This document shows, piece after piece, positions 14,540 through 50,120 of a DNA stretch of 64,000 bases. Position numbers and translations under genes: made by a program. The notes under the pieces are model-generated. The model ran no database searches. It was not told the DNA's origin and worked only from the letters and a program-made list of their open reading frames with translations. Numbering within the stretch: position 1 is the stretch's first letter; every line of letters starts with the position of its first letter. Origin of the DNA: Chiloscyllium plagiosum (lineage: Eukaryota); assembly GCF_004010195.1 (NCBI RefSeq), contig NC_057718.1:41623803-41687802 (forward strand), read 5' to 3'.

Positions 14540-14870
14540 GCTTTTATTTCCCCCAAAACATGAAGAACCAGCGGTTCCAGCACTTTTCTGGGACCTGGGT
14601 CATATCTATTTACCGCTCAGTCCTGCTCCCACTCCGCCGTCTCCACGTGAAACCGCCGCCATCTTAACCGGTAGGAGCAGCGCCGAGTGCAACCCACACA
14701 ACCTTCCGCCACCGCCAGCTGAAGAGCCCGGAACAAAGAGTCCGCCCGAGCCCTGCTCCTGCTGTAAGTTTAGAGAGAACCTCAGCAAGTGACTACAGTT
14801 TCTACTTTGGTCCCGTTCACTTTCGCACAAGTTAGGTTGAGCAAATTAATGTGACCGTCTTCGAGTCCCT
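14540..14870 (-). promoter_or_regulatory. RRP15 CpG-rich housekeeping promoter / 5' UTR
   Basis: Local GC and CpG enrichment against a CpG-depleted background; YY1 motif AAGATGGCGGC over the ATG; E-box CACGTG 14644-14649; ETS-like GGCGGAAG near 14703-14710; partial ZNF143/THAP11-type GACTACAgtttc near 14791. Confidence 0.7.
14614..14662 (-). CDS. RRP15: RRP15 coding exon 1 (MAAVSRGDGGVGAGLS + G)
   Basis: ATG at 14662 in context aagATGGCGGCG inside a CpG-rich segment; 49 nt then donor G|GTAAAT; phase 1 joins exon 2 in frame (G+AT=Asp). Confidence 0.85.
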
Positions 14871-17649: not shown

Positions 17650-19395
17650 TTCATCTATCTTGGCCTCCTCCAGTGGTCCCCAGCATCACAAATGACAATC
17701 TTCAGCCAATTTGATTCACTCTACGCAATGTCAAGGAACAGTTAGAGGCATGGGGTACTGCAAAAACTATGAACCCTGACAACATTCCAGCAATAGTACC
17801 GAAGACTTGTGCTCTCGAACCTGCTGCTCCCCGAACCAAGTTATTCCAGTACAGTTACAACACTGACATCCAACCAACCATGTGGAAGATTGTGCAGGCA
17901 GGTCCTGTATACAGAAAGCAGGACAAATGCAATCCAGCCAACTACTGCCCCAACAGTCTACTTGTGATCATCAACAAATTCATGGAAGGTGTCATCAACA
18001 GTGCTATTAAGTTGCACCAGCTCAGTAATAACTTGCTCAGTGACACCCAGTTGGGGTTCCACAGGGCAACTCAGCTACTGACCTCATTACACCTTTCGTT
18101 CAAACATGAACAAAAAAAGCTGAATTCCAGAGGTCAGGCAAGAGTGACTGTTTGTGATAAGAAGGGCCTGTGCCCGAAACGTCGAATCTCCTGTTCCCTG
18201 GATGCTGCCTGACCTGCTGTGCTGTTCCAGCAATAAAGTTTCAACTTTGATCTCCAGCATCTGCAGACCTCACTTTCTCCCCACTGTTTGTGATAGCAAG
18301 GCCATGATTGGCCTAGTGTGGCATCAAGGAGCCCTAAAAAAACTGAAGTCAGTGGAAATCAAGGAAAATTCTCTACTGGTTGGAGTTATACCTGACACAT
18401 TGTCGTGATTGTTGGAGGTCAGTCAACTACATTTCCAGGACATCTCTGCAGGAGTTCCTCAGGATAGTGCCAAGGCCCAACCACCATCAGCTGCTCCATC
18501 AATTATGCCTCCATAATATTAGAAGTGGGGATATTCTCCAATGATTGCACAATGTTCAATAATATTTGTAACTCCTCAGATACTGAGGAAACCACGTGCA
18601 AATGCAGCAAGACCTGAATGATATCCAGTCTTGGCCTGAAAAGTAGCAAGCAATATTTATGCAAACACAAATTCCAGGCCATGACCATCTCCAACAAGAG
18701 ACAATCTAACAAAAAAGCCCTGACATTTAATGGTATTACCATCACTAAATCCTCCAACGTCATTAATCTGGGGCTTACGATTGACCAGAAATTGAACTAG
18801 ACTAGCCAGGTAAATACTGTGGCTATAAAAGTAAGTCAGAGACTAGGAATCCTGCAGTAAATCACTCACCGCATGATTTCCCAGAGCCTGTCTACCATCT
18901 ACAAGGCACAAGTAATGAGTACAATGGAATACCTCCCACTTGCCTGGGTGAGTACAGCTTCAACAACACTCAAGAAACTTGATGCCATCAAGGACAAAAC
19001 AGCCCACTCAATTGGTATCCAATCCCTCCACCATCAACACTCAGGAGCAGCAGTATATACCACCTACAAGATGTACTGCAGAAATTCACCAAAGTTCCTT
19101 AGATAGCACCTTCCAAGCGTACGGCCACTTCCATCTAGAAGGACAAGAGCAGTACATGGGAACACCATCATCTGCAATTTCACCTCCAAGCCACTCACCA
19201 TCCTGAGTTGGAAATTTATAACTGTTCCTTCATTGTGACTGGGTCAGGATCTTGGAATTCCCTCTTTAAGGCATTTTTGAAATAACTACAGCACTTGGAC
19301 GGAAGGAGCTCCCCACCTCCTTCTGAAGGTCAGCTATGGATGGGCAATAAATGCTGGTCAGCCAGTGATGCCCACATCCCACAAGCGAATATAAA
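17650..19395 (+). mobile_element. CR1/L2-group LINE, RT through 3' end, degenerate
   Basis: PDNIPAIVPKTCALE...NPANYCPNSLL...LLSDTQLGF; gagttcctcaggatagtg (GVPQ motif); YKAQVMSTMEYLPLAW; gggcaataaatgctgg tail. Confidence 0.9.
18160..18282 (+). mobile_element. Short Penelope pLTR insert within the LINE
   Basis: Flanked by 13-bp direct repeat actgtttgtgata (18147-18159 / 18283-18295); ends cactttctcc. Confidence 0.85.
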
Positions 19396-20190
19396 AAGAA
19401 AGAGACATTGGATTAACAATTAATGTTCAAAATGATGAAATGGGGTGCTCTTGCAAGAAAATAATTTGATAGAATTTGTCATGTGTTGAAAGATAAGAAG
19501 CAGCAAGAATTTAAAACAAGTTGTGAACTAAGAAACTGCATTCTGTTTTTTTTTCTGATGACAGAATTTTCTCCCAGTCGCAGTGGAGAAAGAACAATGT
19601 GGTGCCAAGTCAGGATGGTTGGTGTGAAGGGGAACTTACAGATAGTGATGTTCCCACACAGGTGCTGCCATGTTCTTCTGCATGTTAGAGCTCAGAAGAT
19701 TGAAAGGTGCTGTTCACACCAACTTCTCAAAGGCGAGGGATGAGCAAAAAATGCTGGCCCGGCCAATGAGATCCATATCCCATGAATAAATTTTAAAAAA
19801 AAGAACCCTGCATCACTGAATAATTCATTCAGTTTAACAGGAGCTGATATTTTTGGATGGATACAAAATAACCAAGTTCCGAAAAATAAAACTCTGAAAA
19901 ATAACCACTGGATACAGTTAATTACTCAGATGTTAAAAGGCTTCCAGTGCTTAAATCACTGGTCCTGTGTACTGAGCACTAATGCACCTTGCTCCTTTTC
20001 ATATTACAATGGCAGAGCAGAGGAACAAATTGGATTGTATATTATGTGTATTTTATACATAAATATATATTCACACACATGCACATATATACTTATGTGT
20101 CTTTGTATCAGTGTATATAACATACTTTAAACCAATAAGTGCTTTCCATTGATGTAAATGAAAAACTGAGCTCACAATATAAATTAAGTA

Positions 20191-20392
20191 CAGGTCGTTC
20201 TGCTATAACGTGTATTTTGTTAACGCGAATTCACTGTAACATGATAAACAAATTGGGGACACTGTTTCTAAAGCACAAACATTTAAAATGTGTGTTGGCT
20301 GCAATGTGATTAAGTGCTGTTTCTGAAGTGTGATTTTACTTAATGCAGGGTTGCACAAGCATGCAACCATCACATTATAGAAGATCTACCTG
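20191..20392. mobile_element. Tc1/mariner (pogo/Tigger-like) MITE, copy 1
   Basis: TA|CAGGTCGTTCTGCTATAA...TTATAGAAGATCTACCTG terminal inverted repeats; homologous to 57744-57964. Confidence 0.8.
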
Positions 20393-21369
20393 TTAATTAA
20401 ATTAGATCTTGGTCAGCAAACAGTCATTCACATTTGAAAGCATGAACTCAGCAGTGGTAATGCTTACTGGTCAGAATTCTGTGTAAATGAGAACCCCACA
20501 CTATTAGGATGTTTTTGTCAGATCAAGAAGTCATGCATCAGTTGTAAACAGTGCAAATTGACCTGCAGAGATGGCAGTAGTGGGCCTATGGTAAGACGAG
20601 GATGAGAAGGAAATTCAGCAGGGGAACAAGATGTTGGCCAGCAGCAGACTACAGTTTCACTGTGCAACCATATTTTTTGGTATCAACTTCCATGAATCCT
20701 TGAAGGACAGCTGGCTTACTTAATTCGATTTGAGAAGACTGAATAGAGCGTACAGAATATGTTTGTCAGACCGTTGTGACCCGATTTCACAGAAGTACCT
20801 TCCAATGGCATCAGCAATGGCCTGAAATCTACTTTCAGGTGTGCTGCTTTGAACAGCTCCAGGACCAAGTTAACATGAAGCAATCCTGAAAAAGCACACC
20901 TCATGAACAATGCTGAATGTAATATTCATCCCTTCATACTAGAATGTGCAATTTAATTGGCAGATCCTTGTATTCAGTTTAAATTCAACATTTTTGAACA
21001 GTGGATCTGCAATTGAGACTATCCAAATATACGTTGATTGTTTCATTCAGCAGCATGCTGTCTTTATAAAAAAATTTTTGCTTTACCTGAAAGTTTAAGA
21101 AAATAATAAAGGTTGTCACTCCAGCCTATTATATAGGTATGATATATAGGTAGCATTGTCATCCTTTAGCTTAATTTTAGACCCTCTCTGCCTAATCAAA
21201 TGCATGTTAAGGAACTCACAGCACTATCAGAAGAACAGTTCTTTTTGTGTCTTTTTAACATTGTACCCTCACAAATATTATCAGAATTATTAATCTCATT
21301 GCTGTTGTTTAATCTTTCAATGATCAAGATTGGATCAGTGGATAATTGGCCAGTATGCACCAAAATAAT

Positions 21370-23480
21370 TTATTGTGTCATATTTGTGAGTTTTTTTAAA
21401 GATAGTTTAATGCATTAAACTATCTCCCTAATTTGAGGTAAAATTGAAAGGGGCATATGATTCCCTACACTTTGTGCTTTGGTGTGTGCAGATTACAGAC
21501 TCTCAGGCTGCTAGATTCAGATATCCTGGAGAGAGACAGAGTGGGGTGGGGAGCGATGGGAGGTGTGGTTGCAGACAGAGAGAGAGATACGAAAGATAGA
21601 CAGCAGATATTGTGAACAGGCTCCTTGTTAGTCACCAGGCAGATTGCATGTGGAATTTGCTGTCTGGTGGAAGAGATAGAATATGTAGAGATTTAAGGAC
21701 CCTGGAACATATATCCTATAGTGGTTAGGAGAAGGAGCCACTGGACTGAGCCTGGCTGATGGATGTTTGTTTGGGGATTTGCAAAAAAGGGAGGAAAAGA
21801 AGTTTTGACACTGAACATTACAACTCAGAGAAATGAAGGAGAGCAAGTCCTGCAATAAAGAAAATCTACTTAGAGTGCAGGGTCATCTATAAACAAAGTG
21901 TGGGGCTTTGGTCTTGTTTAGAAATTAAAGGTGGATACCTTTTCTGTGATTCAGCTCTTTGGTTTCTGACTAAATAACAATTGATAGATGTTGATTTTAG
22001 TGTTTTAGAGAAAGTCTTAAAGCATGAAATTTTCTCAAATCTTCTTTGAATTGGCCATTAGGAATTTTGTCTCTCTTTTTAAATGTTATTAGTCTCCATG
22101 GGGATCATACAAATTGAGGGCCTGTCCAGGATATGAATCTGAAGTTTGTATACCAGTTATCTTAGAATTTGCAAGAACTTTAAAAATATGGTTTTGTTGT
22201 GTTAAATGTAAAAGTTAATATGAATACATGTTATGCTTATTTATTTCTGGAAAAATATCAACTATCTATGAACATTTTACAACAGTTAAGAATAGTTAAT
22301 TGAATGCAGTGGTGAAGAAAGGTGGAGTGGATTTAAAAGTAGCAGTCATAGAGGGAAATGTTGGTTCAGTATTGAACCTTGAGGAAGTCAAGAGTGATTC
22401 CAGTGGCACTGGTGTTGAGTTGGCTAGATTCAATTACAAATGTAACAACTGGCATTGGAAAGAGATAGCAAAAAGCAAACATTTGAGTTCAAAGAAAGAG
22501 AGAGAGAAAATAAATTATAAAAATAGAAAAACGAAGTGAAAGGAAAAGTGTAAACTTGAACATCAAAGAGATAAATGTAAACTTGAACTTGAATTCCAAA
22601 GAGGAAATGAAAATGAAAACCTTGCATTCCAGAACAAAAATGAGGAAATGTGATCCTGACAAAGAACACTTTAGCATTATGCCAACTGGGGAGTGGCTGG
22701 AAAATTTGATGATGATTCAGTTTTGACTTGTGACTTTGATTTAGCAAGGAATATTGACATAGTGACAAATTCAATGAGGGAGGAATTGACATTTATTTAG
22801 AAATTAAGAAAATTGCTACAAATGAACAATGGCCGAAAGAAAGTTGGATGATTTTATTGTAAAATATATTCATCGGGAAGCATTAGATGTGCACTCATTG
22901 CTTTTTGACATATAGTCGAGTGATTATAATAAAGTGAAAACTGCTGTTCTCAATGCACGAGTTAGTTCTTGAAGCTTACAGGCAGAAGTTAAGAAATGTA
23001 AGTAAGGAACAAACCAGACTTTTGTGGAATCTTGTAGAGAAAATGACATGATATTTAATAGGTAGTGTAGGTCTTTGAAGGTTGAACATAATTTTGAAAA
23101 CCTTAGGGAGATAATGCTAATGGAGGAATTTTAAAATATTGTCCCCTTGGGAATAATGTCTCACTTGGAAAACCATAAAGTTTCTAAGATACGAGGAGCT
23201 GCCGTAATGGTTAATGATTACACAATGTCTCACAAGCATGTTAGTAGCAGATAATTGTTTATGAGCCCTCAAAGAAACTGGGGAGAAAAGAAGATAACAC
23301 TGATAATGAACAGAACACTAGTTACAGTGAGGAAGAAAGCAGAAATAAAAAGACAGACACTTTTCACAGTAGTTAGATGAAAAACAGTATGGAAGACAGG
23401 TGTGATTCAAAGGACCAATATGTTATCTTTGTCATAAGAAAGGATACATGAAGGCAAATCATTAGAAATTAGCAACCAAG
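21370..23480 (+). mobile_element. Degenerate Gmr1-like gypsy LTR element: probable LTR, tRNA-Pro PBS, gag
   Basis: ...tcatacaaat followed by TGAGGGCCTGTCCAGGAT (22115-22132, 14/18 to tRNA-Pro PBS TGGGGGCTCGTCCGGGAT); QWPKESW, KVKTAVLNA..EAYRQK, FENLREIMLMEEF, AAVMVNDY and decayed zinc knuckle CYLCHKKGYMKANH. LTR 5' boundary uncertain. Confidence 0.8.
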
Positions 23481-25688
23481 ACAGCAGTACTTTGTTAGAG
23501 TGCAGTGTGTTCTCTGAGAATGCTGTGCCAGTAGGGAAAGCTTGTGATGACATTTTTGATTAAGTTTGAAAATTATATGGTTCAGTGTTAAAGAAGGATT
23601 TTAAATTCAAAGAAAGACAACAATGAACGTAAGAGGGGCAAGTTGGCTGTGATTGACTTGGGAAATGCATTGAAACGTATGCTGATAGACGTCAATTGTT
23701 ATATTTAAAGAATTAATACATGGTATAGAAAAAACATCAATTTCTTTAAGGCACAGAAACCCAACAAGTGAATCAACCACAGCTAACATTCCACTTTCCA
23801 TTGCCTTCATTAGAGTCTGCTGTTATATGACGTGTAGTGATATTCTCATCATCCCACAGCGTCCTTGGAAGTTCCACAAGTGATAAGGTGATTTTCTCCA
23901 ACATTCACTTTTTAAAAGTTTATTGCTGTGACCTTTTGCACCATGGACATGACCAGGTTAATTTAGCTAGCAACAACGGCATGATGCAACCTGCCTTTGA
24001 CCATTTTCTAATATCTTAGCACATTCAGTCTGCAAAAATTGCATATGTGTGAAGAAATGATTGCAAATTTAATGTAGCTGAAGTTTCCAAATACATGCTT
24101 CTTGTATTTGCCCCTTCAGTGTCCTAATGTCCAGCACATGTGGAGTCTGTGCTTTCACCCATCAAAGTGACAATGACTCCTCCCACTGTGAGCTGAGATC
24201 ATCCGAGCCATTTTCCAGTTGCATTGCACATCTAGACAATAGCAAGTGATGGCAACAAACACAACTCACAATGGACTCTGTCTGCAACAGGAACTGCCTA
24301 GTTATCGGGTGTCCAATAAAACCTCCCTGTCCAATTGTACCTTGCATTAACCCTTCAGCCCATTTCCAACAATCTCCCCAGTGGAGACCCACCACAGTGA
24401 GCTGCACCTCCAACTGTCCTCTCTGACCCCTGAGCTCTGACATTATATGATGTCCACTCTTGTCCTCTTACCTGAATCCCTCCCTGCCTGTGGCTGCTAT
24501 GTCTACAGGACTGACTGTTACTCCCTGGATGGCAGCCAAACAGATCCCTTGTTGGTGAGTGCCTGAAGCTGATGACTGAGTGTAACCAAACCCCTAGACT
24601 GAATGCAGACTGTGCCTCTGATTGATGTTACCAGGACTCCTGATATACAGCATTCTACCACACCGACTGGCTTGGCCTGAAGAACAGCCCCTACACAGTT
24701 TCTGATGTGGTCATTTGGCTGCATACAAATGCAGTGTGTTTGCTGTCAGAGAATTGGCACATTGTCTGTGGTAGATGAATGTCTCAGTGTGCTATCCAGC
24801 AAGAATTCTGCTCCTGGACAGATTCCCACTGACCAGCAATCTGCCTGTGGCTGTGCAAAGAACTTGTTAATATCGCAGGGTGGATAGTCTTTCACTCTGG
24901 TTGAAGTGGCAACACAAAAGCTCACATGGCACTGGATGGCAAGGAAAGACATGGATGTTGCAAGTACACAGATGGCTGCTAACTGAAGCAACTCTAACAG
25001 AGCAAGCCAGCAGTCCTGAGATGCAGCTTGGTCCATTTCATGACCTGGCCCTGTGCAGAATGAGCCCTTACAGCTACTGTTCAATACTAGTTACTAATTT
25101 GCTCTGAAATACAAGTCTGTGTTTCCAAAGAGGCCTGCCAGTGGATCAGAAAAATGTCATGATGGTCATGAGGGGCTGGCAAATACCAGGTAGCTATGTC
25201 AATGGAAGAAGGAGGTGTGTGGCTGGTGCCTATGGATTGTGCCCTGAGATGCTGTTTGATACAGGTCCACATTGAGGCTTCTCATAGCCAATGTTGAGCC
25301 AAACTTGCCAGGGACTCACTCTGATTTCCATATCAAGATTTTTGAATGTCCAGCTTGTTTGCTGTGTCAAAATCTCAGAATGCAGATGTGAAAAGGATAT
25401 TGAGACATTGACTAATAGCAAATAATTAATGACAATTTGGGGTGAATTGAAACTGTCTAAATTAAACATGCAAACAGAATCTGAGAACAAGGTAGCATAA
25501 CAGAAAGCAACAGTATTCAAAGCCGGTGACAGAACAAAGGAAAGCATTGCTTTGACACTGAAAGACTCAACTACAACCAATAGTGATAGCATAGAGCTGT
25601 GAGGAAGGACACATATTTTTGAACATCAATTAAAGCTTCAAAACGATGAAATAATTGTTCTTGCAAGAAGATAATTTGATGAAATTTG

Positions 25689-27432
25689 TCATGTCATAGA
25701 GTCATAGAGATGTACAGCATGGAAACTGACCCTTATGTCCAACTCATCCATGCCAACCAGATATCCCAATTTAATATAATTCCATTTGCCAGCACTTGGC
25801 CCAAATCCCTCTAAACCCTTTCTATTCAGATACCCATGTAAATGCCTTTTAAATGTTGCAATTGTACTAGCCTCCACCACTTCTTCTGGCAGCTCACTCC
25901 ATACACACACCACCCTCTGCATGAAAATGTTGTCCCTTAGATCCCTCTTATATCTTTTCCCTCTCACCCTAAACCTATGCCCTCTATTTCTGGATTCCCC
26001 CACCCCAGGGAAAATACTTTGTCTATTTATCCTATCCATGCCCCTCATGATTTTATAAACCTCTATGAGGTCACCCCTCAGCCTTCAACGCTCCAGAGAA
26101 AACAGCCCCAGCCTATATAGAACATAGAACATAGAAGAATACAGCGCAGTACAGGCCCTTCGGCCCTCGATGTTGCGCCGATCCAAGCTCACCTAACCTG
26201 CACTAGCCCACTATCCTCCATATGCCTATCCAATGCCCGCTTAAATGCTCATAATGAGGGAGAGTCTACCACTGCTACTGGCAGGGCATTCCATGAACTC
26301 ACGACTCGCTGCGTAAAGAACCTATCCCTAACATCTGTCCTATACCTATCCCCCCTTAATTTAAAGCTATGCCCCCTTGTAATAGCTGACTCCATACGTG
26401 GAAAAAGATTCTCACTGTCAACCCTATCTAAACCCCTAATCATCTTGTACACCTCTATCAAGTCACCCCTAAACCTTCTTTTCTCAATGAAAACAACCCC
26501 AAGTGCCTCAGCCTTTCCTAATACGATCTTTCTACCATACCAGGCAACATCCTGGTAAACCACCTCTGCACCCGTTTCAGTGCCTCCACATCCTTCCTAT
26601 AGTATGACGACCAAAACTGCACACAATACTCCAGATGCGGCCGCAACAGAGTCTTATACAANNNNNNNNNNNNNNNNNNNNNNNNNNNNNNNNNNNNNNN
26701 NNGCTGTAACCTGCCAGATCCTTCCTCACTGTCAACAACTCCTCCGACTTTCGTATCGTCCGCAAACTTGCTCACCCAACCTTCTAACCCCTCTTCCAGG
26801 TCATTTATAAAAATGACAAACAGCAATGGTCCCAAAACAGATCCTTGCGGAACACCGCTATTGACGGCACTCCAAGATGAACCTTTGCCATCAACTACTA
26901 CCCTCTGTCTTCTTCCAGCCAGCCAACTCCTAATCCAAACTTCCAACTCACCCTCAATGCCATACCTCCGTATTTTTTGCGGTAGTCTACCATGGGGAAC
27001 CTTATCAAACTCCTTACTAAAATCCATATACACCACATCTACCGCTTTACCCTCATCCACCTCCTTAGTCACCTTCTCAAAGAATTCAATAAGATTTGTG
27101 AGGCATGACCTGCCCTTCACAAAACCATGCTGACTATTCTTGATCACATTATTCCTATCCAGATGTTCATAAATCCTATCCCTTACAATTCTCTCTAAGA
27201 TTTTGCCCACAACAGAAGTGAGACTCACCGGCCTATAGTTACTAGGGTTATCCCTACTCCCCTTCTTGAACAAGGGAACCACATTTGCTAGCCTCCAATC
27301 TTCTGGCACTACTCCTGTAGACAACGAGGACATAAAAATCAAGGCCAATGGCTCTGCAATCTCCTCCCTTGCTTCCCAACCCTCCAACCCTGGCAACATC
27401 CTTGTCAATCTTTTCTGAACCCTTTCAAGTTT
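25689..27432 (-). mobile_element. Composite CR1: young RT-containing copy (~26118-27377) nested in another CR1 3' end
   Basis: RT motifs [47 protein letters not shown]; inner tail (ttctatg)n, outer tail (ctatgact)n; 41-N gap at 26662-26702. Confidence 0.95.
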
Positions 27433-27719
27433 TGCTTGTTGAAAGATAAAAAGCAACAAGAATTTAAAAGAATATGTGAACTCAGAAACTGAACGTTTTT
27501 TTTCTGATCATCAATGTAACCTTAACAATGTTCTTAATACAAAAGAGGATTTTACTTGAGAAAGTAAAAAAACCCAGCTTGCACATACAAGCATATTGTT
27601 AAAACTTGTATCCAGAACAGAATACTAAATGTTTAACTGTACAACATGTAATTTTACTATTGATAGTTTACCCACTTTGACATCAGCCTGATTCACAGTC
27701 AATGTTTTTCTCACTTTTT

Positions 27720-28368
27720 CACAAGATCTGGACATTGTTGGCTGTGCCAGAATTTATTGCCCATTCCTAACTGCCCTTGATAAGGTGTTAGTGAACTGCT
27801 TTCTTGAACTGCTGCCATGCACCCACAATTCTGTAGAGCATTCCACAATTTTAGCCCAGTGGCAGTGAAGAAAGAGCAAAGTGTTACAGGTAGATAGATT
27901 CTTGTTAGCCAAGGAAATAGAGGTTACCAGAAATAGATGGAAATCACAGAATCACAGATGTGTTATGGAGTTGAGAAATGTTACTTGTATCCTCATGTCT
28001 GTACTGGTTCTTCAAATGAGAATCATTGCCTCGTGCCAATCTTCTGTTTTGTCCCTATATTCTTGTCCACCACTTCTATCCAATATTCACCCAACATATT
28101 TTAAATGCCTCAACTGAACTTGCCTCTGCTAAATTTCCTGGCTGTGCATTCTAGTCTCTAACTACATGCAGTGAGAAAACATTTCTTCTCACGTCATGCT
28201 TACCTCTTTTGCACTTCATTTTAAATATATGCTCTCTTCTTCTTATTCCTTTCACAATCAGGAACAACTTCTGCCTATCTACTCTATCCAGTCGACTGAA
28301 TATTCCCAGAATGTGAAATTTGAAATATCTACACATCAGCTATGATCTTATTGAATGAATGGCCCCTT
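27720..28368. mobile_element. Old LINE fragments (CR1/L2-group tail and CR1 pieces)
   Basis: aatttattgcccattcctaactgcccttga tail; minus strand RLDRVDRQKLF...DVRRNVFSLHVV. Confidence 0.65.
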
Positions 28369-28682
28369 TTAGATTCCATACAGTGTGGAAACAGGCCCTT
28401 CGGCCCAACAAGTCCACACCAACCCTCCGAAGAGCAACCCACCCAGAACCATTCCCCTACATTTACCCCTTCACCTAACACTACGGGTAGTTTAGCATGA
28501 CCAATTTACCTAACCTGCACATCTTTGGACTGTGGGAGGAAACCGGAGCACCCAGAGGAAACCCACGCAGACACGGGGATAATGTGCAAACTCCGCACAG
28601 ACAGTTGCCTGAGGCTGGAATTGAACCTGGGTTCCTGGCACTGTGAGGTAGCAGTGCTAACCACTGAGCCACCGTGATGCCC
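28369..28682 (-). mobile_element. HE1-type tRNA-derived V-SINE
   Basis: Reverse complement of the 44706 copy with A and B boxes; inserted into a CR1 3' UTR. Confidence 0.9.
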
Positions 28683-29324
28683 ATTTCTGCTCTTAATCCG
28701 TATACTTGTATGTTTAAACAGTCTTCTCCATTTAAGTGACCACCTTCAAAGATTTACTTACATACACCTCCAAATCTCTATTTTCCTGTACCCTTTTAAG
28801 AACTATCCCATTCACTTTACATTGTGTATCCTCATTCTTCAAAGCCAGAAATGTATCATTTAATACTTTTCTTCATTGAATTACAAGTGCTGTGTTCTGC
28901 TCATTTCACATTTCTGTCTACATTATCTTGATGTCTGTGAGTATTCTCCTCATGTTTATTATATTTTCATGTTGTGCCATCTTCAAATTTTGAAATTATG
29001 CCTTTTGAACCTGACTCCCAGTCATTATCATATATCAAAGTTTCAGTGGTCTAAATACCAACTCCTGAGGTATAACATTGAGTACCTCCCTTTTTAACAC
29101 TTCTCTCTGTCTTCTGTCCTTTTGTCAATTTCATATCTACACTGCCATTACCCCTATCATGGGCTTTAATTCTACCAACACATATATTACATGGTACTTT
29201 ATAAAATTCTCTTTTTAAAGTCTAAACTTAAATATTGTGAGTGGATGTGGTTTCATAATTCATTAGCCTTTGTGCATTTGGGAATCTGATAACTTCCTGA
29301 CTCCTAAGATAAGTCAATCCTGTC

Positions 29325-29755
29325 TCAGGTAGCACTCTTATCTCTCAATCAGAAATTTGTGGGTTTAATTCTTGCAGCAGACAGTTAAGTCTATAATCAA
29401 GGCTGACTATTTTATACTGAGTTGAGGAAATGGTGCACTATTAGACATCTCATCTTTCAAATGGGACATTAAACCACTTAGGCAGATGCTTAAAGATCCC
29501 ATGACACTATTCAAAGATGAGGAGAGACATTCTCCCAGTGTCCTGACCAATATTTATTCCCCATCCAACATCAATAAAAACAGATTATCTATTTCGGTCA
29601 TCATCTCGTTGTTGCTTGGGAGACTTAATTTTGCAGAATTGTCTATTATGTTTCTTACCTTATAACAGTGACTTTTCTTCTAAAGAAGTTCATGGGTTTT
29701 GGAATGTCCAGAAGTCATGAAAAGCATTATGTAAATTTAAATTTCTTTGGCTTTC
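29325..29755 (+). mobile_element. DeuSINE (SacSINE1/AmnSINE-like)
   Basis: ctttcaaatgggacattaaacc...aaagatcccatgacactattcaaaga...tctcccagtgtcctgaccaatatttattcc...aacagattatct: Deu-domain core. Confidence 0.8.
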
Positions 29756-30290
29756 TTCACATTTTCACTCAACATGCATTGGAAACTGTTTCATATCAGT
29801 ATCAATGCTATAGTGTAACAGTGCCAGTATAAAGATGCTTATTCCTAGATATAGTACTGCATCTGAAAAAACGAGGAAGAACAAGTTATAACATGATTGA
29901 AACAATGTTGTAATTTTGCCTTTGGATGATTCAGCTCCTAATGGATGGATATAAACTCATGCCACATTTGGAATGATTAAAACAGTGTTTAGATGTTTAT
30001 ATCATCATGAAGACATTTTAATATAAAGCACATAATTAAATACCTATTTAGCATTTCCCTCCTGTCAGCTATCTTCTATAACAACTTAGCTGAGAATGAC
30101 AGCTTGTCATCTGGGAGAAACTCAATGGAAATGTTACATAAGTTGGTGACTCCTCACAATTTCAAAGTCCATGGCTCACATGTGACTGCGATATGAAGTT
30201 GCCAATATTCATCTCTTTTCTGATCCAAGGAGGTTTTCCTTCTGTGTTGCTATGACTAAATTAGAGAACATGGCCTACAATATTTATATG

Positions 30291-30484
30291 GAGAAAGTAA
30301 GGGCTGCAAATGCTGGAGATCAGAGCTGAAAATGTGTTGCTGGAAAAGCGCAGCAGTTCAGGCAGCATCCAAGGAACAGGAGAATCGACGTTCCTGAAGA
30401 AGGGCTTATGCCCGAAACGTCGATTCTCCTGTTCCTTGGATGCTGCCTGACCTACTGCGCTTTTCCAGCAACACATTTTCAGCT
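30291..30484. mobile_element. Penelope pLTR-derived fold-back insert with hammerhead-like core
   Basis: 69-nt arms 30324-30392 and 30416-30484 with 2 mismatches; flanking direct repeat cta(c/t)aatatttatatg (30275-30290 / 30483-30498). Confidence 0.85.
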
Positions 30485-33400
30485 ATAATATTTATATGTG
30501 TTTATGCCTATAATTGAGATTAATAACGATTACAATACCTCAATTACCGGTGTAAACTTCAGTCCATTGTTTGGAATAATACAAATAAACTGTCAGGTAA
30601 TCATAAATATAGATCTCATATCTTAACAATAAAACAGCATAGCTGAAAGCAAACAACATAATTGAACTCAGGGAAGAAGCTGTTTATTTAGACACATTGT
30701 TGCTCAGCGTTAACTTGATAAAAGGGACCTATTTGACTTCATTAATATTTGCATACTGTCCTTCAAAAGTAATTCATGATATGCTGTTCTAACATAATAA
30801 CACACTATATAAATGCCAGTTGTACACTATAATAACCAAAGGCAGTGCTTTGTAACAATCCTCACCATGCATTGACCTAAAATCAGCATTTTTTGTGCCT
30901 AATTTGAGAAACTGTCCCTCATACTGTATCAGAGAATGCAACTGAATTGAGGCACTGAAATGATACATGTAAATCAAAAACAAATTTGTAAAATAAATAG
31001 CAATTACTTCCTGAAGATATATCTGCAGCGTGACCAGCCAACTCCTGCGACCTACTTGCAGTCAGAGTCCATGGGTAACATTGTATAAACCTGCTGTTGC
31101 AGATAACGTAAGGGAAATCAACAGCATAGAGTTCATCAAATATTTAGAATGGCTTTCCTGATTTGTTTATTTTTATCAGCAGGAAGTGAATTGTTTTCTT
31201 TTCTCTAAAATGCAATCTTCAAATATACGGACATTTGGTGACAACAAGATGGCCAAAGTATTCTCTACATCATACGAAGCCCGCAAAACTCACTTCAACA
31301 GTAAATAAAGGAATAGGTTAGTTTTGTAAGTTGCACTTTCCTTGAAATTGCCCATGGTTCTAGTTCTCTAGAAACTAATCAGTGGATTATTATTCTAAGA
31401 TGATGATTGTTGTGTCAAGGCTGAAAAGGGGGGCTCAAAGATAACCAAGGCCGCTGAAGCAGTGAGAGACCAACATGTACATATTCACAACAACCATACT
31501 ACAAATCAATGTTGGGCTCTTCATTTCACTTGCTCAATTAAGACTACTGGAACAAAAGTTAATTAATATGTGAAAGTAGAAAATAAATCACTTCAGTTTG
31601 ATGATAAACAAGAACACTGGACTCAATAGCCATAATATAGAGTTCATTAACAAGTCTAATGAACTCCTTTGGGCAATAGAATATAGTGATGACAGATATG
31701 GATAATGGATTTTCTGAGATTTAGTTTCAGGCTAGGGGTTTCTAAAGAGGATGAAACTAATCAGGAAGAACCACTTGAGATGTGATAGGGAAGAGATGAG
31801 TTAAAAGTTATTGATCATAGACATACAATGTATTTGAAGGCTTAAAAAAGATGATGGCAGTTGAATGGCACAGAAAGTGGTATTTCCAACCAAGGTTTAG
31901 ACAATGAACTCAACAATATATAAACTTTCATAATAAAGTAATCTTTTATCAGGGGAAAGGCATTGTCAGTAATCTACCCAAGTCTGATTAAGGATATAAA
32001 GTAATAAACTATCGGAGACTTTGGGGCAATTAGAAAAGTTTTCAAAGAAGAGCCAGGTCTAACATTTCTGAATGGTTGAACAAGTCGAGAAGACTTGGAG
32101 CATGAAAGAGATGCACTAGAAAAGAAGGAAAGAGCTGCTGGTACATATTCGGCATTCTGTTCAGTGTGGACTGGTCTTTGCTACATATCATGGTTGTATA
32201 TTTTTGCTGTGTAATATGTGTTATATTTTATTTTAAATTGTTTAAATTCAACTTATCACCATTTTCATTGCAGTTGCTCATGTTTAGTTAAATTGCTACA
32301 AAACATATTCAAGGATTATTGCATCCCAACATTACTGATACTACAGGCTGTAGCTAGATGTGTGCTAAAAGAAATCTGTAAATTGGAACCCATGTGATCA
32401 AAATTGCTCAATCACCAGTCAAACAGTTTGGTTAATCATATCTATAAGCTGTTTTCTCCAATGAGCAGTACCTGGAACTTAGCTTTAGATTCAGACGATA
32501 AATATTCCAATGTACTATTACAAATGAAAATGAAAAACATTATGAAGTGTAACTATAATATACTACAGTTTTAACCCCTTAAGCTATAAATTAAAGCAAT
32601 ATATTTATAAGTGTACAACTCTGTATTTGATGATATGCAACATAAAGGTTTGATCAAACTTTATCTTTCCATTTTCCATAATCAGTACTTTATAGAATCC
32701 ATTTCAGCTGTTAGAAAAAGACAGGAATATTAGCGTGTGGTTTCTCCTGGGAACATTAAAATATAAATTACAGTACTTTGAATTTCTATTTTATAGGCAC
32801 TTACCTGAGAGCTAAGAATGTATTACTTAATAAGCACTGTCTAGCTTCATTTTTCATAAACTGGTATTCTGATATAAACCATTAATCGGATATAAAAGTA
32901 AAATGGTTCGCCGTTCATGATTTTGTGTGCTTTGCTAAGGGTTAGCATAGGAAATGATCCACAGAGCAACACCATGAGACATATACAGGGAAACAGGCAG
33001 TATGAGAGGTTGCCATGATTCTTCTTGGGTTCTTGTTCATAGAAATGTTTCTTTGGAGTCAGGAGAGAGCGAGTTACAGCTATGAATGATTTGAAATTTA
33101 CAGATTTCTTTTAGCACACATCTAGTTATAGCCTGTAGTGTCAGATTGAGTGTAAGAACCTGCAAAGCTTGTCTTATGATCTAGATAACAGAAAATAAAC
33201 CAACAATGTCCAGTTCATTAAATGTACAAAATGAAAAACTACTGCACTCATTTTTTTCACAGCTGGGGAGAAATATTTTTGTTTCTGAACTTTTCTGTCA
33301 GGAAAGGGTTGCTTCCTCAAGATATTTTCACTTTATAACTGTGCTAATAATTCAAACATATTTGTGGTTATGTCTTCCATTTCAGTTGTGTTAGTACTTA

Positions 33401-33614
33401 ATGATATAGATTAAATGTGTTGCTAATGCACATGCTCATTTTAAGTTCATTCATTCAGCCAATTTGAATTAGAGTTTGAAAACTTCTCCTTTGTATTACT
33501 TTAATATGCATTCAGTGACTCAAATTTGATTATCAAGACAGTTAAGAGCCTGGTTTTGCAAGCAGTATCTCAAGATTGTATTCAGGTCCAATTAAAAACA
33601 TTCCTTTGCTTATG

Positions 33615-33860
33615 GAATCTTAGAGTCAGTGTCACACAGTACAGAAACAGACCCTTAGGTCCAACTAGTCCATGCCAAACATAATCCAAAACTAAACTAG
33701 TCTCACCTGCCAGCTCTTGGTCCATATCCTACCAAACCTTTCCTATTCATGTACTTATTCAAGTATCTCTTAAACGTTGTAATTGTGCCCGCATCCATCC
33801 TTCCCCCAGGAAGATCATTCCACACACGAACCACCTTCTGTGTAAAAAAAAATTGCCTCA
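33615..33860 (-). mobile_element. CR1 3' end
   Basis: Matches the CR1 tail family at 25689 and 55945. Confidence 0.8.
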
Positions 33861-35034
33861 CCTGTCAAGTGCTCAGTAAAGGTGAGATAGAAATGCTTGA
33901 TTTCCAGATTCTTTGCTTCATTACATGGAGTTTTAATAAATACACGAGTTTTCCAACTTGCTTTGTGTTATTAAATAGAATATAGTAGTGTTAGGCTTTA
34001 ATATATCCCATATAAAAGTCCCAAACATAAACCATTAATTATCCTGGCTAATGGGTCTCTGATACCTGGAACGTCTGCATTGCATGAGGGAAGAGGATAA
34101 AAATGTCAAAAGGAAAATAAATTTTTAAGCAGCCAGAGATCAAAAGAATGGCTGGATTCATTAAAGGACCTTTGTAGCCCACAGTCTAATTGAGGGAACT
34201 GTTGAAGTCTACATTCCTTCACCAAATGTTTTACACCTAGATCATATTATCATTAAATTAGATTGAATTAGTTGCAATGATTGAATTAAAGAAGTATGGT
34301 ATCAAGATTTGGCAATTTGTTGTTTTTCATATTCACTCCCACATAGAAATCCTGAACCAATAATAATAACCACAATACTCCTAGGATCAGAATGGGTGGA
34401 AAATCTTATTTGTGCCAAGTAATTTAGGAATTGTGAGGTGAATGAACTTATACAACAGTTTCACTCTATTCAGACTGCTTTTAAGATGTTGATGATGAAT
34501 TTCTGTCCAAAATCTTACACCCAATCCCTCTGTTAAAGCAAGCTTGGGAAGTTTCATTACTTTCCCTAGAATTTATGATAATTCTATCCTTGTGAATTGT
34601 ACCAGCTGACATTTAGTGCGAATTCTGTTTGGGTCTGTAAAAGAAAGTCCAAAACCATGTTTGCTTCATTGTAGATGGAAAGTCTGCAGAGGGACTTCTT
34701 GCAGACTTCATCTAATGTTTCCTTCACGATCAGAGAAACAGAACATTGCTGTAATATTCCACTGATGATTCACTGTAAGTGTCACTAATGAACTATTAAA
34801 GGCATCAAGCGTTTTGTCCTGACAATTATATAACCTACCAATGAACATTCTTTACTTCTGACCTGATGGTAGTTAAGAATATCATTGATCAATGAAGATA
34901 GTTGAACCATGGAAACTATCCTGAGGAACTCCAACAATAATATCATGAATCTGGCCTCCAACAACCACAACTATTTTCCATTTTATTTGAAATAATTCCA
35001 CCAAATAAAAAGTTTTTCTTCTGATCTCTACTGT

Positions 35035-36772
35035 GTGCGGTTCTGGTTGCCCTGCATAGAAAGGATATTATTAAATTGGAGAGGGTTCAGAAAAAATTAC
35101 CAAAATGTTGCTGGGAATGGAGAGGTTGAGTCATAGAGATATGCTGGTTGGCTAGAACATTTTTTACTAGAGCATAAGATATTAAGGGGTGACTTATAGA
35201 GGTATATAAAATCATGTGGGGCATAGATAAGGTGAACAGCAAGGATCATTTCCCGAGCGTAGGGGAGTTAAAACTAGGGGGCATATTTTTAAGCTGAGAG
35301 GAGAAAGTTTTAAAAAGGGCATGAGGAACAACTTTTTTTCTCAGAGAGTGGTTCATGTGTGGAATGAATTGCCAAAAGAAGCGGTGGCTGCAGGTATACT
35401 TACAACATTTAAAAGACTATTGGATATGTACATGAATGGGAAACGTTTGGAGGGAAATGGGCCAAATGCAGACAGATGGGACTATTTTAGTTTGGGAGCA
35501 TGGTCGACATGGACTAATTGGACTGAAAGCTATTTCCATGCTATATGACTCTATCACTTCAATTTTACTAGACTTCCACAATGCCACAATGATCAAATGT
35601 TGCCTGGATGTTTTGTGTTATAAGGTGAGGTTGGTAAGGCTGAGACTCTTTTCCCTGGAGACTAAGAGTTGACCTTAGAGAGATATATAAAATCACGAGA
35701 GGCAAACATAAGGAGATAGCAGACAGTTTTTCCTTATGGTAACGGAGTCTAAAACTAGAGGATGTAGGTTTAAAGTGAGAGGGGAGAGATACAAAATGAT
35801 CCAGTGGAGTAATGTTTTCATGCAGAGGGTGGTGAGTGTCTGGAACGAGCTGTCAGAGGTAGTGGCCGAAGTGAATACAATTTCATCATTTAAAAAACAT
35901 TTAGACAGTTACATAGATGGAGGCAAGCATGCAATGAAGGCAAGCATGCAGGTACAGCAGGTAGTGAAGAAGGCTAACAGCATGCTGGCCTTCATAACAA
36001 GAGGAATTGAGTATAGAAGCAAAGACGTGCTTCTGCAGCTGTACAGGGACCTGGTGAGACCACACCTGGAGTATTGTGTGCAGTTCTCGTCTCCAAATTT
36101 GAGGAAAGACATTCTGGCTATTGAGGGAGTGCAGCACAGGTTCACGAGGTCAATTCCTGGAATGGCGGGATTACCTTACGCTGAAAGATTGAAGCAACTG
36201 GGCTTGTATACCCTTGAATTTAGAAGACTGAGAGGGGATCTGATTGAGACAGAGAAGATTATGAAAGGATTGGACACTCTGGCAGCAGGAAACATGTTTC
36301 CGCTGATGGGTGAGTACCGAACCAAAGGACACAGCTTAAAAATACGGGGTAGACCATTTAGGACAGAGATGAGGAGAAACTTCTTCACCCAGAGAGTGGT
36401 GGCTGTGTGGAATGCTCTGCCCCAGAGGGCATGGAGGCCCAGTCTCTGGATTCATTTAAGAAAGAGTTGGATAGAGCTCTCAAAGATAGTGGAATTAAGG
36501 GTTATGGAGATAAGGCTGGAACAGGATACTGATTAGGAATGATCAGCCATGATCATATTGAATGGCAGTGCAGGCTCGAAGGGCTGAATGGCCTACTCCT
36601 GCACCTATTGTCTATTGTCTATGGTCTATTGTCTATTGATAGGTACAGAGGGATTTGGACCAAACACAGGCAAATTGGTTGAGTTTAAATTGAGAAAACT
36701 AGGCAGCATGGACAAGTTGGGCCAAAGGGTTTGTTTTTATGCTTTTGAACTCAATGACTCAATGACACTATG
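35035..36772 (+). mobile_element. Three CR1 3' fragments; a young copy (~35920-36637) is nested in an older copy (~35600-35919 plus 36638-36772)
   Basis: ORF 35736-36536 is chimeric; LYRDLVRPHLEYCVQF, RRNFFTQRVV; (ctattgt)n tail at 36604-36637. Confidence 0.9.
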
Positions 36773-37814
36773 TTGAGGCACAGCTACTCTCACTTCGTCT
36801 CTCAATTTAGGCTCTATCGTCCATGATTGGCCCAAGTCTGTAATGAGAGCAGGGGGAGTCTGATGCTAGTGAAACTTAAACTGAACAGATTATAGGTGAA
36901 TGTATTTTATGGTGAACAGTTCTATCAGTATTATATCATCAACTTCAATTGTCTCCAAACATATCCACAATTATATTACCTTGAGGCAAAATCTAACTAT
37001 GAAAAAAACTATCCTTCCCCAGAGTTTACTTTACTATTGTCTTTCCATTTATAATGCGTAGACAAGAATATAGAACACTTATTGGATAAACAGCTTACCA
37101 ATCCGAATATTACAGTCAGACAATTTAGACACTCACATAGACACAATTAGGAGATGTGAATGGAATTGGATCTTGATTTATTTGTGGATGTCTGCAAATT
37201 TCATTAAAATCCTGTGTATTATGAGTGAGAAAGAGTGGAGTACTTACTGGGGAACCCTGATGAATTGTACTGATTAAAGAATCTTTAAACACTGTAGCAT
37301 GAAAGTTTAGAATGTCCTTTACAGACTCTTGGAGCATTACATTAAGATCCTACAAAATATCTAGTCTTTGAAAGTAATGCAACAAATAAATCAAGTGTGT
37401 TCAGGAGATTGATGGAGATGTGTCTTGTTTAATATCATAAGAATCTTTGTCATCTATATTTTTAGTTGGGGAGAAGGAATTTGAGGCTGTGCTTTTAGTT
37501 ACTGGTGACTAAAAGCAGCCTGTGTAGATGCAATATACATAACAACTGAGGTTTTCTCATTTTGCATTCATCAGACCATTATATTCTACCATTTATATTA
37601 AAACTAATTATGTAATTCACATTTTTATTTGTTGTTGTCTGATATCTTTAATTATGTGTGACAAGAATGGGAATTCTCTCAGCCAATTGTTTGACAAAGT
37701 GAAAGAAAATCCACAGCTCACGCAGTTGATAAAAAAGTATTTTTTTTGCATTTATAGTCTAATTCATAGTCTACCATATATCAGGCTTTTGAAGAGACTG
37801 CAAGCATAACATAA

Positions 37815-37985
37815 AAAAAAGAACTGCAGATACTGGAGGTCTCAAATAAAAACTCAAATTGCTGGCAAAGCTCAGCAAGTCTGATATCCATTTAAATGAA
37901 GAGTCACTCGATTTGAAACATTAACTCTGCTTTCTCCCCACAAATACTATCAGACCTGTTGAGTTTCACCAGCAATTCCTGTTTT
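37815..37985. mobile_element. Old Penelope terminal remnant
   Basis: ctgcagatactggagg...ttgctggcaaagctcagca / tgttgagtttcaccagcaa inverted pair around a decayed tgaagagtca...gaaacattaa motif. Confidence 0.6.
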
Positions 37986-38478
37986 TCTGGAAATATGTCG
38001 TTGGTCTAATAGAGGCGTTGCGTAAGTCTGCTATTCTTACCTGGTCTATCCGATATTTGATTCCAGTCTCAAAGCAATGCCGGTTAATCGTTAACTCATC
38101 TCTGAAGTGGCCCAGCAAGTGACTCATAAAACTGTCCCAAGGAATAATAGTTGGAGGAGGATCTCCACTACCAAATTCAGAGAGTAATCAAGGACATGCA
38201 ATAACTATGGCCACACCTTTATTACTCAATTCCTGACAATTGAAAGATGCTTTAACCTTCCTTCATCTTGGAAGTAGGTGCTTGGCTGAAGTTGGGACTA
38301 CTCTTGAACAAAGAAGAGGAGGATGTATTCTGATTTGATTAACAATTTTGTACAAAATTGTCTAAAATTGAACATAAGTTTTTTTGGCTCCAGTTTTGTC
38401 TACTTCCCCGGGCACGTTGTCCACACAAGCTCACCTAATGTAAAATGTTGTAATACAGATGCTTGATCCAAACTTATT

Positions 38479-38639
38479 AGGGTAGATCGTGACTTTGTGT
38501 GATAGTGTAAAATGGATGATAGTGAATTGGCAGCCCACTTTTTACCACATCCAGTTTCTAGGAGTTGAGAGATGTAAAATTGGCTGCTGATCGGTTTTCA
38601 GTCATATTACATGGCTGCACAAAATCAAAATATATCCCT
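38479..38639. mobile_element. Palindromic MITE (Harbinger-like termini)
   Basis: agggtagatcgtgactttgtg / cacaaaatcaaaatatatccct termini; inner arms ttggcagcccactttttac / gtaaaattggctgctga. Confidence 0.55.
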
Positions 38640-39857
38640 TGTATAAATGGTGAAATATAACAATTGTTACTACAATGGATCATTCAAAATTTGAGATATG
38701 TGTTGTTTTTAAAAATGTTATTGTTTTGAAAACATGAATTTAGAATTTGTAAGTAACCAATCTATTATGTAGTTATTGCTCTTTCTGTCAATAAAATTTG
38801 ATTTGTAATGTGAACTGAGATATGGGAATGCTATACTTTAAAATTTCTGACTATCACTAGGGTCTTGCACACAGACCATAATTTGCTGATATGAGTTGGG
38901 TGTGTATAAGACTGCATTTGGTACAAGTTGAGAGTATTTTGTTTTATTCTTGGAATAGTTGGGTATTGCTGGCACAAGCAGAATTTATTGCTGATGCCTA
39001 ATTGCTTTTGTGAAGGTGGTGGCTAGCTGTCTTCTTGGACTGCTGCAATTCATGTGGTCAGGTGCAGCTACAATGTTCAGTCTATAACCCACAGAATTGT
39101 GGAGGGCATGGTACAACTCTGTATCAGCTCTATTATGTATAATAATGCTTAAATGCTAATTCACCCTTTGACGTGTTATCTTTAATTATTTCATGCATTA
39201 GGTCACATTTCAGGTCATTGAGACTTGAAGGCTAGGCATTACTGTTGGATTTTTAGGTTCGGCTGGAGAAAAGATGTCTGGAACAAACTTAAATCATAAC
39301 ACCGAAAGTATTCACTGGGGAATTTTTGAAAACTGTAGCAGGGAGAGATGCCTGATATGCCCTTCAGAGATTGCCGGAGCATTACCTTAAAAAAGCCCAG
39401 TAATATAGTCATGGAAAGTGATGGAAAATATATCACATGGTGTCAATTGTGAAAATCTGCAACATTTGTTCAGGAAGCTTCAATGACACTTATGGGGTGA
39501 ACCCTTGAGAAGATACAACTGAACCCCTAAAATAAAAGGCAATGTAATAATTATGGGCACTGTGAGGGAATGGTGAACATTGTTAGAAATTATACAGCTG
39601 TTTCCCTGATTACAAATTAATAATCGTGGAGTTTGCCAGCTACCGATACTTTATCAGAAAAGGTCTTCCCATTTCATTTAATATGTTTCAATGCGTTGAA
39701 AATCATGAACGGTGAGCCCAGAGATTAAGTGAACCAAGGATACCTGTGCATTTTCAAATTCTATAAGGTAATATTAGGCGATGATTAGATCACTATGAGA
39801 TGATAAATGCAATGTGCAAAGTACAATGAGCAGGAACCTTCTTATATTATAGATTGT

Positions 39858-41188
39858 GGCTTAAATTTTCATTTCCAAGTCATGTGAAATTTCCCAACTG
39901 TAGGAACTCAACTTGGGAGAATTTGCCCGAACTCACTGGAGTTGGACTCACTGCCTCTGGAAACAATGCAGCATCTTCACAGGGACTGCCAAACAGTGAG
40001 GCAAACTGTTTAAAAGGCTGCTTTATAAGTAAAATAATAAATATCTCTCGCTCTTACCCCTGATATTGCTCACCTCTGCCTCTGAGACCATGCCCCCCAC
40101 ACTCTCCATGCCCAATTCATGCTAACCTCTGTCCTACATGCACCCCCTCATACCCTCCATATCAACTTATGGTCCTCAGCTACACTCTGTGGCTCCTTAC
40201 AGCTGCTATACCAATTTTATGCCAACTCATGCCAACCCATGATTCTCCACCCATCCCTGTGGTTCTTTATAGTCTCTTTTCCAACTTAGTACCAACCAAT
40301 GCACCCATCCACTGCCCTTTCCACTTACACCCACCATGGCTACTCACCCAGTATCTAACCTAGGCACATCTCAGGAATCTGCTAAGATGAAATGAAGTCC
40401 TAAAAATCTATTACAAACATCATTGCATTAAAAGTACTCTCATTGATAAAAGCTAATTCAATACACTTAAAACATTCAAGTCTTTAATCCATTCTGGAAA
40501 AGTATTTACAGCATCGGATTTAAGTACATTATAACCACTTGATGTTATCAATAAACTTGTAAGATTACAGCCCCCTGCCCCCCCCACCCCCCAACTGTGA
40601 CCAAGAAATGGTGTAGAAGCAGTCAAGTAGAACCAATACTATAATTAGGCTTATGTTAACCTCGGATGCTGCCTGAACTGCTGTGCTCTTCCAGCACCAC
40701 TAATCCAAAATCTGGTTTCCAGCATCTGCAGTCATTGTTTTTACCTTATGTTAACAAACAGCTATTGAAAATGTAAGAACCTTTTTTTTTCAACTGAGAA
40801 TCACAACAGTCTTTTCCAAAATTTTGATGGAGATTGAATTGACAAATTAATTCCAAAGACCTTATCTGTCCCTAATGTACATTTATAGACACTCTTATCA
40901 ATCCCCAAAAATATACTTGACCTCTCCAAAGAACTCTGGGAAGTTTAGACCTTATTCTTGAAATTATCATGACTCTTGTTTCAGGAATTTTGATGATAGA
41001 AAAAAGCTGCTGAGTGAAGGCAACGGTACTTATGAACATGACACTGCCTCAGTGAACAGTTTATATGCAAAGTGGATGCCATACCCCATTCGTCCTCCAC
41101 CTCACAGCAAAAATGGTGGTTGTTGGCTGCAGGAACTGAATGTCCAGATTTTGTGTTCCAACCCTATTTTCCTATGAAAATTCAGGCC
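39858..41188. mobile_element. Candidate non-autonomous PIF/Harbinger-like element
   Basis: Termini ggcttaaattttcat / atgaaaattcaggcc (13/15 inverted match); C-rich low-complexity interior; contains a Penelope insert 40661-40744 flanked by cttatgttaac. Confidence 0.45.
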
Positions 41189-49994: not shown

Positions 49995-50120
49995 GGAGAA
50001 AGTGAGGGCTGCAGATGCTGGAGATCAGAGCTGAAAATGTGTTGCTGGAAAAGTGCAGCAGGTCAGGCAGCATCCAAGGAACACGAGAATCGACGTTTTG
50101 GGCATAAGCCCTTCTTCGGG
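49995..50120 (-). mobile_element. Short Penelope pLTR insert
   Basis: Near-identical to 30291-30392 plus the gggcataagccc stem; acagg on both flanks. Confidence 0.85.

Follow-up and report, generated by a model that had tools for sequence, protein, structure and literature searches.

The hairpin unit at 30275-30498 of the window, by which we mean the whole 64,000-nt stretch of DNA that was analysed, is made up of the 3' ends of two copies of an abundant Neptune-type Penelope-like element (PLE), both of them 5'-truncated and placed head to head. Whatever the mechanism that formed it, the unit is very probably a single insertion by-product that was dead on arrival. Its parts are the following:

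30275..30290, plus strand: left copy of the target-site duplication (TSD), 13-16 nt, its last base common to the element's long terminus
30290..30323, minus strand: PLE tail of 34 nt, on the inverted copy only, stopping at the family's long terminus
30324..30392, minus strand: left arm, the body of the inverted 5'-truncated copy, which is without catalytic core
30391..30392, no strand assigned: 2-nt microhomology at the head-to-head junction, two bases common to both copies
30391..30484, plus strand: right copy, sense and 5'-truncated, which starts at the hammerhead's 5' edge and stops at the short terminus without a tail
30394..30421, plus strand: minimal type I hammerhead (CUGAAGA, extra A, 4-bp helix II, GAAA, ACGU, GUC)
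30416..30484, plus strand: right arm of the 69-bp hairpin, containing the scissile bond
30483..30498, plus strand: right copy of the TSD, its first two bases common to the element's short terminus

An earlier note on this DNA had described inverted arms of 69 nt with 67 matches, and 30324-30392 does pair with 30416-30484 with two mismatches (30354/30454 and 30357/30451), both of which are private changes relative to the family majority. What the note had overlooked is that the unit is asymmetric. The minus-strand copy (30290-30392) reaches the long terminus, whereas the plus-strand copy (30391-30484) ends 34 nt earlier, and the 34-nt tail is found on the left side only. The tail end at 30290 is matched by the copies at 18280, 49995, 61653 and 8760, and it recurs as loose ends in 255, 269 and 354 contigs of the DNA runs (contigs aligned to 30040-30760); the short terminus recurs as loose ends at 30479 in contigs from the DNA runs. 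Past the predicted cleavage site, the left arm goes on for 6 nt, entering helix III/GAAA. The right copy has 5 mismatches in 93 against the copy at 49995-50121. One base over from the junction at 30391-30392, an alternative 3-nt microhomology register is available. The unit also has a feature of endonuclease-positive PLEs, namely an inverted 5'-truncated copy at the 5' end with the whole enclosed in one TSD. As 30275-30498 contains no ORF, the link of the family to RT and GIY-YIG comes from sibling copies.

These siblings bear out the PLE origin claimed earlier and allow it to be given more precisely as Neptune-type. BLAST of the unit against the window recovered six other family loci with 77-95% identity (8760-8806, 18159-18280, 40660-40749, 49995-50121, 61530-61653 and 62743-63143), and older relatives were found by profile. 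In the copy at 8760-9167, a GIY-YIG C-terminus (8961-9167) and 3' UTR are joined to the same tail, while the copy at 62749-63143, which is 83% identical to the right arm of the unit over 83 nt, carries a GTFPC-x3-RCKT linker (62980-63100), the UTR and an intact hammerhead. The fragment at 60862-61123 matches Pfam GIY-YIG at an E value of 0.038, a sub-threshold match. A stop-free frame of 43 aa at 60995-61126 found 213 relatives; among the best 150 of these, a YIGET-like motif occurs in 125, and in 55 a CX2-5CxxC linker lies upstream of GIY-YIG. All nine relatives scanned with Pfam contain GIY-YIG, and two of the nine also RVT_1. The linker of the 62749-63143 copy matches the relatives' linker regions (best E 5e-5 in the 150-protein set). 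A CX2-5CxxC linker between RT and EN is a mark of Neptune (and Nematis) elements (PMC8557442; this and the other sources are cited for those parts of their text that were available), and because of it we call the family Neptune-type, an assignment made by linker and without an RT tree. With a frameshifted 125-aa frame as query, none of 217 candidates was kept as a homologue, and Pfam gave no match to that frame. The family must be very large, since each DNA run yielded from 52,034 to 67,758 contigs matching 30040-30760, where depths are not to be taken as copy numbers. Pattern scans for further loci in viral contigs, metagenome contigs and prokaryote genomes found none.

The origin of the unit as an insertion is best seen from its empty site. 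Four of 24 listed sequencing runs were compared over 30040-30760, from organisms A (second sample), B and C. One of the four was an RNA run, with 0 matching reads in the 6% of it that was read, a share too small to bear on expression. In the related species B and C the site is empty, with one contig each running from 30274 directly to 30483, and relative to this the gain is 208 nt, i.e., the insert and one copy of the 16-nt repeat. The direct repeat of 16 nt with one mismatch reported earlier (15/16, 30275-30290 / 30483-30498) is thus a true target duplication of 13-16 nt, with bases shared at both ends, as the empty site holds a single copy of it; a chance direct repeat is ruled out by the same contigs. 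Because the site is empty in two related species, the insertion is lineage-specific, and the flanks diverge by 4.3% in both (22/513 in B and 22/516 in C). The insertion is recent, lineage-specific and neutral, with about 2% private change as expected under neutral drift. Accordingly, of the two origins offered in the earlier note, the recent inversion by-product is the one that the empty site upholds. Both joins between flank and element are present in the second sample of organism A (0 and 1 differences), and the central junction was unbridged in organism A among the matches listed (176,876 further pieces). An assembly artefact was considered and rejected, as both joins occur in the other sample, each arm has a private change and the TSD matches the empty site. 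Elsewhere in the left flank, at 30078, 13 nt that are present in B and C are absent from organism A.

The hammerhead core has the coordinates given to it before, including the 4-bp helix II, the GUC and the palindromic ACGU. CTGAAGA lies at 30394-30400, followed by A at 30401, helix II with a 4-nt loop at 30402-30413, GAAA at 30414-30417, C at 30418 and GTC at 30419-30421; the palindromic ACGU is at 30417-30420 and the predicted cut falls at 30421/30422. Its naming as a minimal type I hammerhead also holds, as the hallmarks of these ribozymes (min-HHRs) in PMC4209133 are present, i.e., the core boxes, an extra nucleotide after position 9, G10.1-C11.1 and a palindromic helix III remnant. The bare pattern CTGANGA-N(1-30)-GAAA matches the window 12 times against 7.7 expected, and 12 was reached by 6 of 100 shuffles. 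Since the bare pattern is within chance, the hammerhead call rests on helix II, on the min-HHR hallmarks and on the position in a PLE end. The Rfam hammerhead models, which the earlier note had suggested as a check, gave no match at E<=10 within 20000-40000, where only sub-threshold miRNA hairpin models appeared. A miRNA was rejected, as scores of at most 38.8 bits against cut-offs of 62-104 reflect merely the hairpin.

Helix I, put at about 2 bp before, does count two Watson-Crick pairs, together with a U-U mismatch and a G-U, compared to 4 pairs in the copy at 62800-62848. It is short in the 30391-30484 copy because the junction replaces its 5' strand. Two subfamily variants were seen: 30424 T>A, which would repair the U-U mismatch of helix I, makes up about one third of the depth in organism C and <5% in A and B, and the loop position 30407 is variable at 15-24% in organisms A, B and C. 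Helix II is paired in 90% of cells across five copies, with no two-sided change and nothing above shuffles, five being few for such a comparison. The core's 5' box was also predicted to pair with the short terminus, but this pairing was dropped, since by eye it is absent from the 18k and 62k copies.

The hairpin itself has a fold of -138.6 kcal/mol (z -17.5), and none of 200 shuffles was equally stable. In the predicted pairing of the whole unit, C30421 has P = 0.9999 of being bound up in the duplex and the helix I pairs have P ~1e-12, while forcing the ribozyme fold would take 15.9 kcal/mol, as against 3.7 for the right copy alone. The model thereby agrees with the earlier suggestion that the long hairpin sequesters the cleavage site, which is predicted to lie within the 69-bp duplex at P>0.999. 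When two copies without left arm were cofolded, the active dimer was not the predicted minimum-energy fold, a result that is not decisive.

Comparison with the rest of the window shows that tailed ends and fold-backs recur:

18159-18280, plus strand: solo tailed copy with a clean TSD of 13 nt; it interrupts a LINE RT fragment
61530-61653, plus strand: solo tailed copy with a clean TSD of 15 nt; it abuts an older fold-back
40660-40745, plus strand: solo tailed copy with a clean TSD of 11 nt
62749-63143, minus strand: head-to-head pair, an internally deleted Neptune-type copy with an inverted tail at its 5' end and no tail at its 3' end; the Cys linker abuts the 3' UTR directly, and the intact hammerhead has a 4-bp helix I
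37819-37986: head-to-head pair, older PLE fold-back
61352-61502: head-to-head pair, older PLE fold-back
13843-13965: head-to-head pair, older PLE fold-back
14003-14134: head-to-head pair, a fold-back of a different repeat family (79% arms) that adjoins the 13.9k unit; its left arm end reads as the complement of GAAA plus palindrome
4416-4965: probable head-to-head pair, an inverted PLE end (minus strand) immediately followed by a plus-strand thumb-linker-GIY-YIG fragment, a textbook inverted-copy layout

Head-to-head pairs therefore number five, probably six, in the window besides the unit. At 62749-63143, 37819-37986 and 13843-13965, where both ends are readable, the tail is on one partner only. 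TSDs were found in 3 of 7 other units tested (11, 13 and 15 nt), and none was clear in the remaining 4. The three older PLE fold-backs have arm identities of 63-79%, and their sense partners seem to start at a decayed hammerhead. Two palindromes unrelated to the PLE end were also observed, at 49745-49794 (84% over 50 nt) and 21400-21425 (perfect, 26 nt).

Contigs of the DNA runs contain at least 314 different joints. Among the 15 of these listed, the inverted parts measure 34-67 nt and 12 land on 30390-30393. The earlier note had taken a unique junction as evidence against a mobile hairpin family. By BLAST, no other family copy of the window has the same junction, so that it is unique in this respect, but the same or a nearby register is found in species without the insertion. 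Two gap-free contigs of organism C cross the junction, 30329-30418 with 8 differences and 30363-30450 with 10, at depths of 20.1 and 15.5, i.e., single-copy. These contigs could not come from a plain inverted copy, for which 15 of 25 loop positions would be mismatched. Further contigs cross the junction with 3-4 gap letters, and the registers vary from about -3 to +4. The register one base longer reaches summed depths of 2964, 2837 and 991 in 9, 15 and 10 contigs, respectively, where overlapping contigs inflate the sums and the register could be partly an alignment effect; a shared hairpin master could also account for it. At some other joints, a single contig reaches a depth of 1175.8 or 460 in C, where the flank has 31.6, and of 291.5 in B, where the flank has 10.7. 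The sides of the joints are mostly short (18-41 nt), with likeness set at 88. The joint from 30345 to 30390 in organism C, with 6 extra letters and about 37 times the flank depth, is absent from the A and B runs and is a species-specific amplification of one junction. Overall, the varied joints are more in keeping with a hot spot that was hit repeatedly than with a single mobile hairpin family.

Joints and 5' ends cluster near the hammerhead's 5' edge and not at the cut site. In 4 of 8 window copies, the two partners being counted apart, the 5' end falls within ~10 nt at the core's 5' box (binomial P 0.006, for an interval picked after looking). Loose ends at 30391 number 438, 480 and 540, and their consensus decays in a few bases (agreement 0.33-0.35); since the sense copy starts there, this pile-up is partly a reference-edge effect. 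No copies starting at the ribozyme cut site were found, and the two copies of the unit pass it by 6 and ~30 nt. As both extend past the predicted cut at 30421/30422, the template RNA was presumably uncut. In the 62k sibling, a predicted 8-bp stem (-13.2 kcal/mol) ends two bases ahead of the core. This stem is a candidate RT stop, and the 5' end of the transcript might be the alternative explanation for the edge. The paper titles and abstract openings that were searched, with subscription journals thinly covered, contained no proposal of such 5'-end clustering at the hammerhead.

As to how the by-product arose, we lean towards double priming, in which each of the two nicked strands primes a cDNA on uncleaved RNA, using one RT start apiece, and the cDNAs join by microhomology. 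In A/T-rich DNA, the GIY-YIG endonuclease would place its nicks in the two strands at a distance of about 16 nt, and uncleaved element RNA would then be reverse-transcribed from each 3'-OH. Copying primed by the top strand would begin at the distal start, which yields the tail, and copying primed by the bottom strand at the proximal one. The two cDNAs would halt early, after ~103 and ~94 nt, within the hammerhead or at its 5' edge, and would join through the 2-nt microhomology before the gaps were filled in. The hammerhead would be a passenger in this process, and any plus-strand transcript would lock it in the 69-bp duplex. Double priming is supported by the one partner ending at the long and the other at the short terminus, by the TSD relative to the empty site and by the varied joints; inverted parts of 34-67 nt, in the 15 of 314 joints listed, are not expected of one fixed unit. 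It also agrees with previous reports that the PLE protein nicks and extends both strands, that two RT starts delimit the tail, and that the main template is uncleaved RNA, with a dimer predicted (PMC11167929). An inverted copy with a one-sided tail and a TSD is typical of PLEs (PMC3846280; PMC8557442). The priming step is one that we infer, no intermediate having been observed. The same titles and abstract openings, again with thin coverage of subscription journals, held no proposal of one cDNA per start site for inverted pairs.

Counter to double priming, PMC3846280 interprets such junctions as self-priming. Applied to this locus, a tail-less cDNA would stop at the hammerhead's 5' edge, fold onto its own GAAA complement and copy itself, and the extension would then anneal to a second cDNA, short and bearing the tail, for which the other strand had been the primer. 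We hold this course of events to be unlikely, although it has a precedent in the self-priming on an antisense template proposed for head-to-head PLE junctions (PMC3846280). The loop is continuous with the tail-less copy, as such folding would have it, but the cDNA 3' end is predicted to pair elsewhere (DNA parameters), with no pairing of >=1% with the junction site among those listed. The 3-nt microhomology register beside the junction seems the commoner form, in favour of self-priming. Against it, many joints have inverted parts of just 34-67 nt, including tail-only ones that self-copying cannot produce. Moreover, the tail would still require a second priming event.

A further possibility, which we consider improbable, is that the unit was copied whole from a hairpin master and so belongs to a non-autonomous fold-back family for which the PLE protein provides mobility in trans. 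The gap-free contigs of organism C across the junction, unlike a plain inverted copy, would be accounted for in this way, and some other joints are multi-copy within one contig in B and C. However, at least 314 different joints exist, the registers at this one shift by about -3 to +4, depth is single-copy in the two same-register contigs and the junction occurs in no other family copy of the window. De novo priming predicts outer ends such as those of the unit, both of which lie at family termini and have primer microhomology. The anole PLE depends on RNA located downstream of the RT start (PMC11167929), a part that the unit lacks, and the start region of the unit is double-stranded. Nor is there support for a retrozyme-like family, the other origin offered in the earlier note, as the unit has only one core, a head-to-head partner without core and no tandem array. 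A related reading, in which some types of fold-back junction are re-mobilised as whole ribozyme-bearing non-autonomous hairpin units, this locus among them, is improbable too, if a shade less so than the hairpin master; the locus would then stand for those fold-backs in which the junction closes on the GAAA/helix III palindrome. If true, the fixed 5' edge would mark the template RNA's 5' end, or a strong RT stop upstream of an uncut ribozyme.

Use of the RNA by the host, either as an active ribozyme or as a long hairpin feeding small-RNA silencing of the family, is very improbable, because the intact core with its near-perfect 69-bp duplex, the presence of the unit in two samples of organism A and the small RNAs from PLE copies in rotifers (PMC3846280) are set against a young, lineage-specific insertion with the ~2% private change expected of neutral drift, a predicted 15.9 kcal/mol for ribozyme formation, single min-HHRs that show no in vitro cleavage (PMC4209133), and a position that is ~15.6 kb upstream of where an RRP15-like gene starts, Pfam having shown no host exon among the 118 ORFs scanned of 234 listed. 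The RRP15-like gene reads away from the unit. An RRP15-like exon is seen at 9520-9879 on the minus strand (Pfam Rrp15p, E 2e-4, sub-threshold), and a CpG-rich likely first exon at ~14630-14800 on the same strand. Near the unit, the Pfam scan of these 118 ORFs gave no host exon and one sub-threshold match.

The locus itself is of little weight, being a young neutral stub, but as a specimen it is unusually clean, with its TSD fixed by the empty site. Its outer ends coincide with the two termini for which biochemistry has given two RT starts as the source, and the unit adds genomic support for PLE copying through an uncut hammerhead. Double priming, with one cDNA per strand and per start, would offer a simple, testable model for the long-noted and unexplained layout of inverted copy plus tail in PLEs.

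The unit is a PLE complex insertion, a layout already published (PMC3846280; PMC8557442). Like the insertions of endonuclease-positive PLEs described there, it has head-to-head copies, a tail at one end (34 nt, compared to 30-40 nt), a TSD around the whole and an A/T-rich target. Unlike them, it is without any ORF and both partners are stubs of ~100 nt, which is why the insert looks like a perfect hairpin. The TSD is 13-16 nt here, compared to 8-10 nt in the rotifer examples (PMC3846280; PMC8557442). In animal retrozymes, units that each bear a hammerhead are repeated in tandem (PMC7229834; 10.64898/2026.07.22.740005). The unit resembles the non-LTR retrozymes of animals in being short, non-coding, PLE-related and equipped with a type I hammerhead, but it is not a head-to-tail tandem, its one ribozyme is minimal and not canonical, and it has no route to a unit-length circle. 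For the min-HHRs of metazoan PLEs, pairs on opposite strands 100-700 bp apart have been reported (PMC4209133). Compared to these, the ribozyme here has a 4-bp helix II, and a helix I of 2 bp plus U-U and G-U instead of 4-5 bp (PMC4209133). Its inverted partner no longer has the core and forms base pairs with the cleavage site.

In L1 twin priming, both target strands prime cDNA, which results in a head-to-head inversion inside one TSD. The cDNAs of our unit differ in that they would copy the same stretch from two fixed starts and not adjoining stretches, and the unit has no poly(A). The closest counterpart in biochemical terms is the Poseidon element PAc of Anolis (PMC11167929). It belongs to another clade, the family here having a Neptune-type linker, but its two RT starts are matched by our termini 34 nt apart, and priming from both strands and copying through an uncut hammerhead would be further likenesses between the two.
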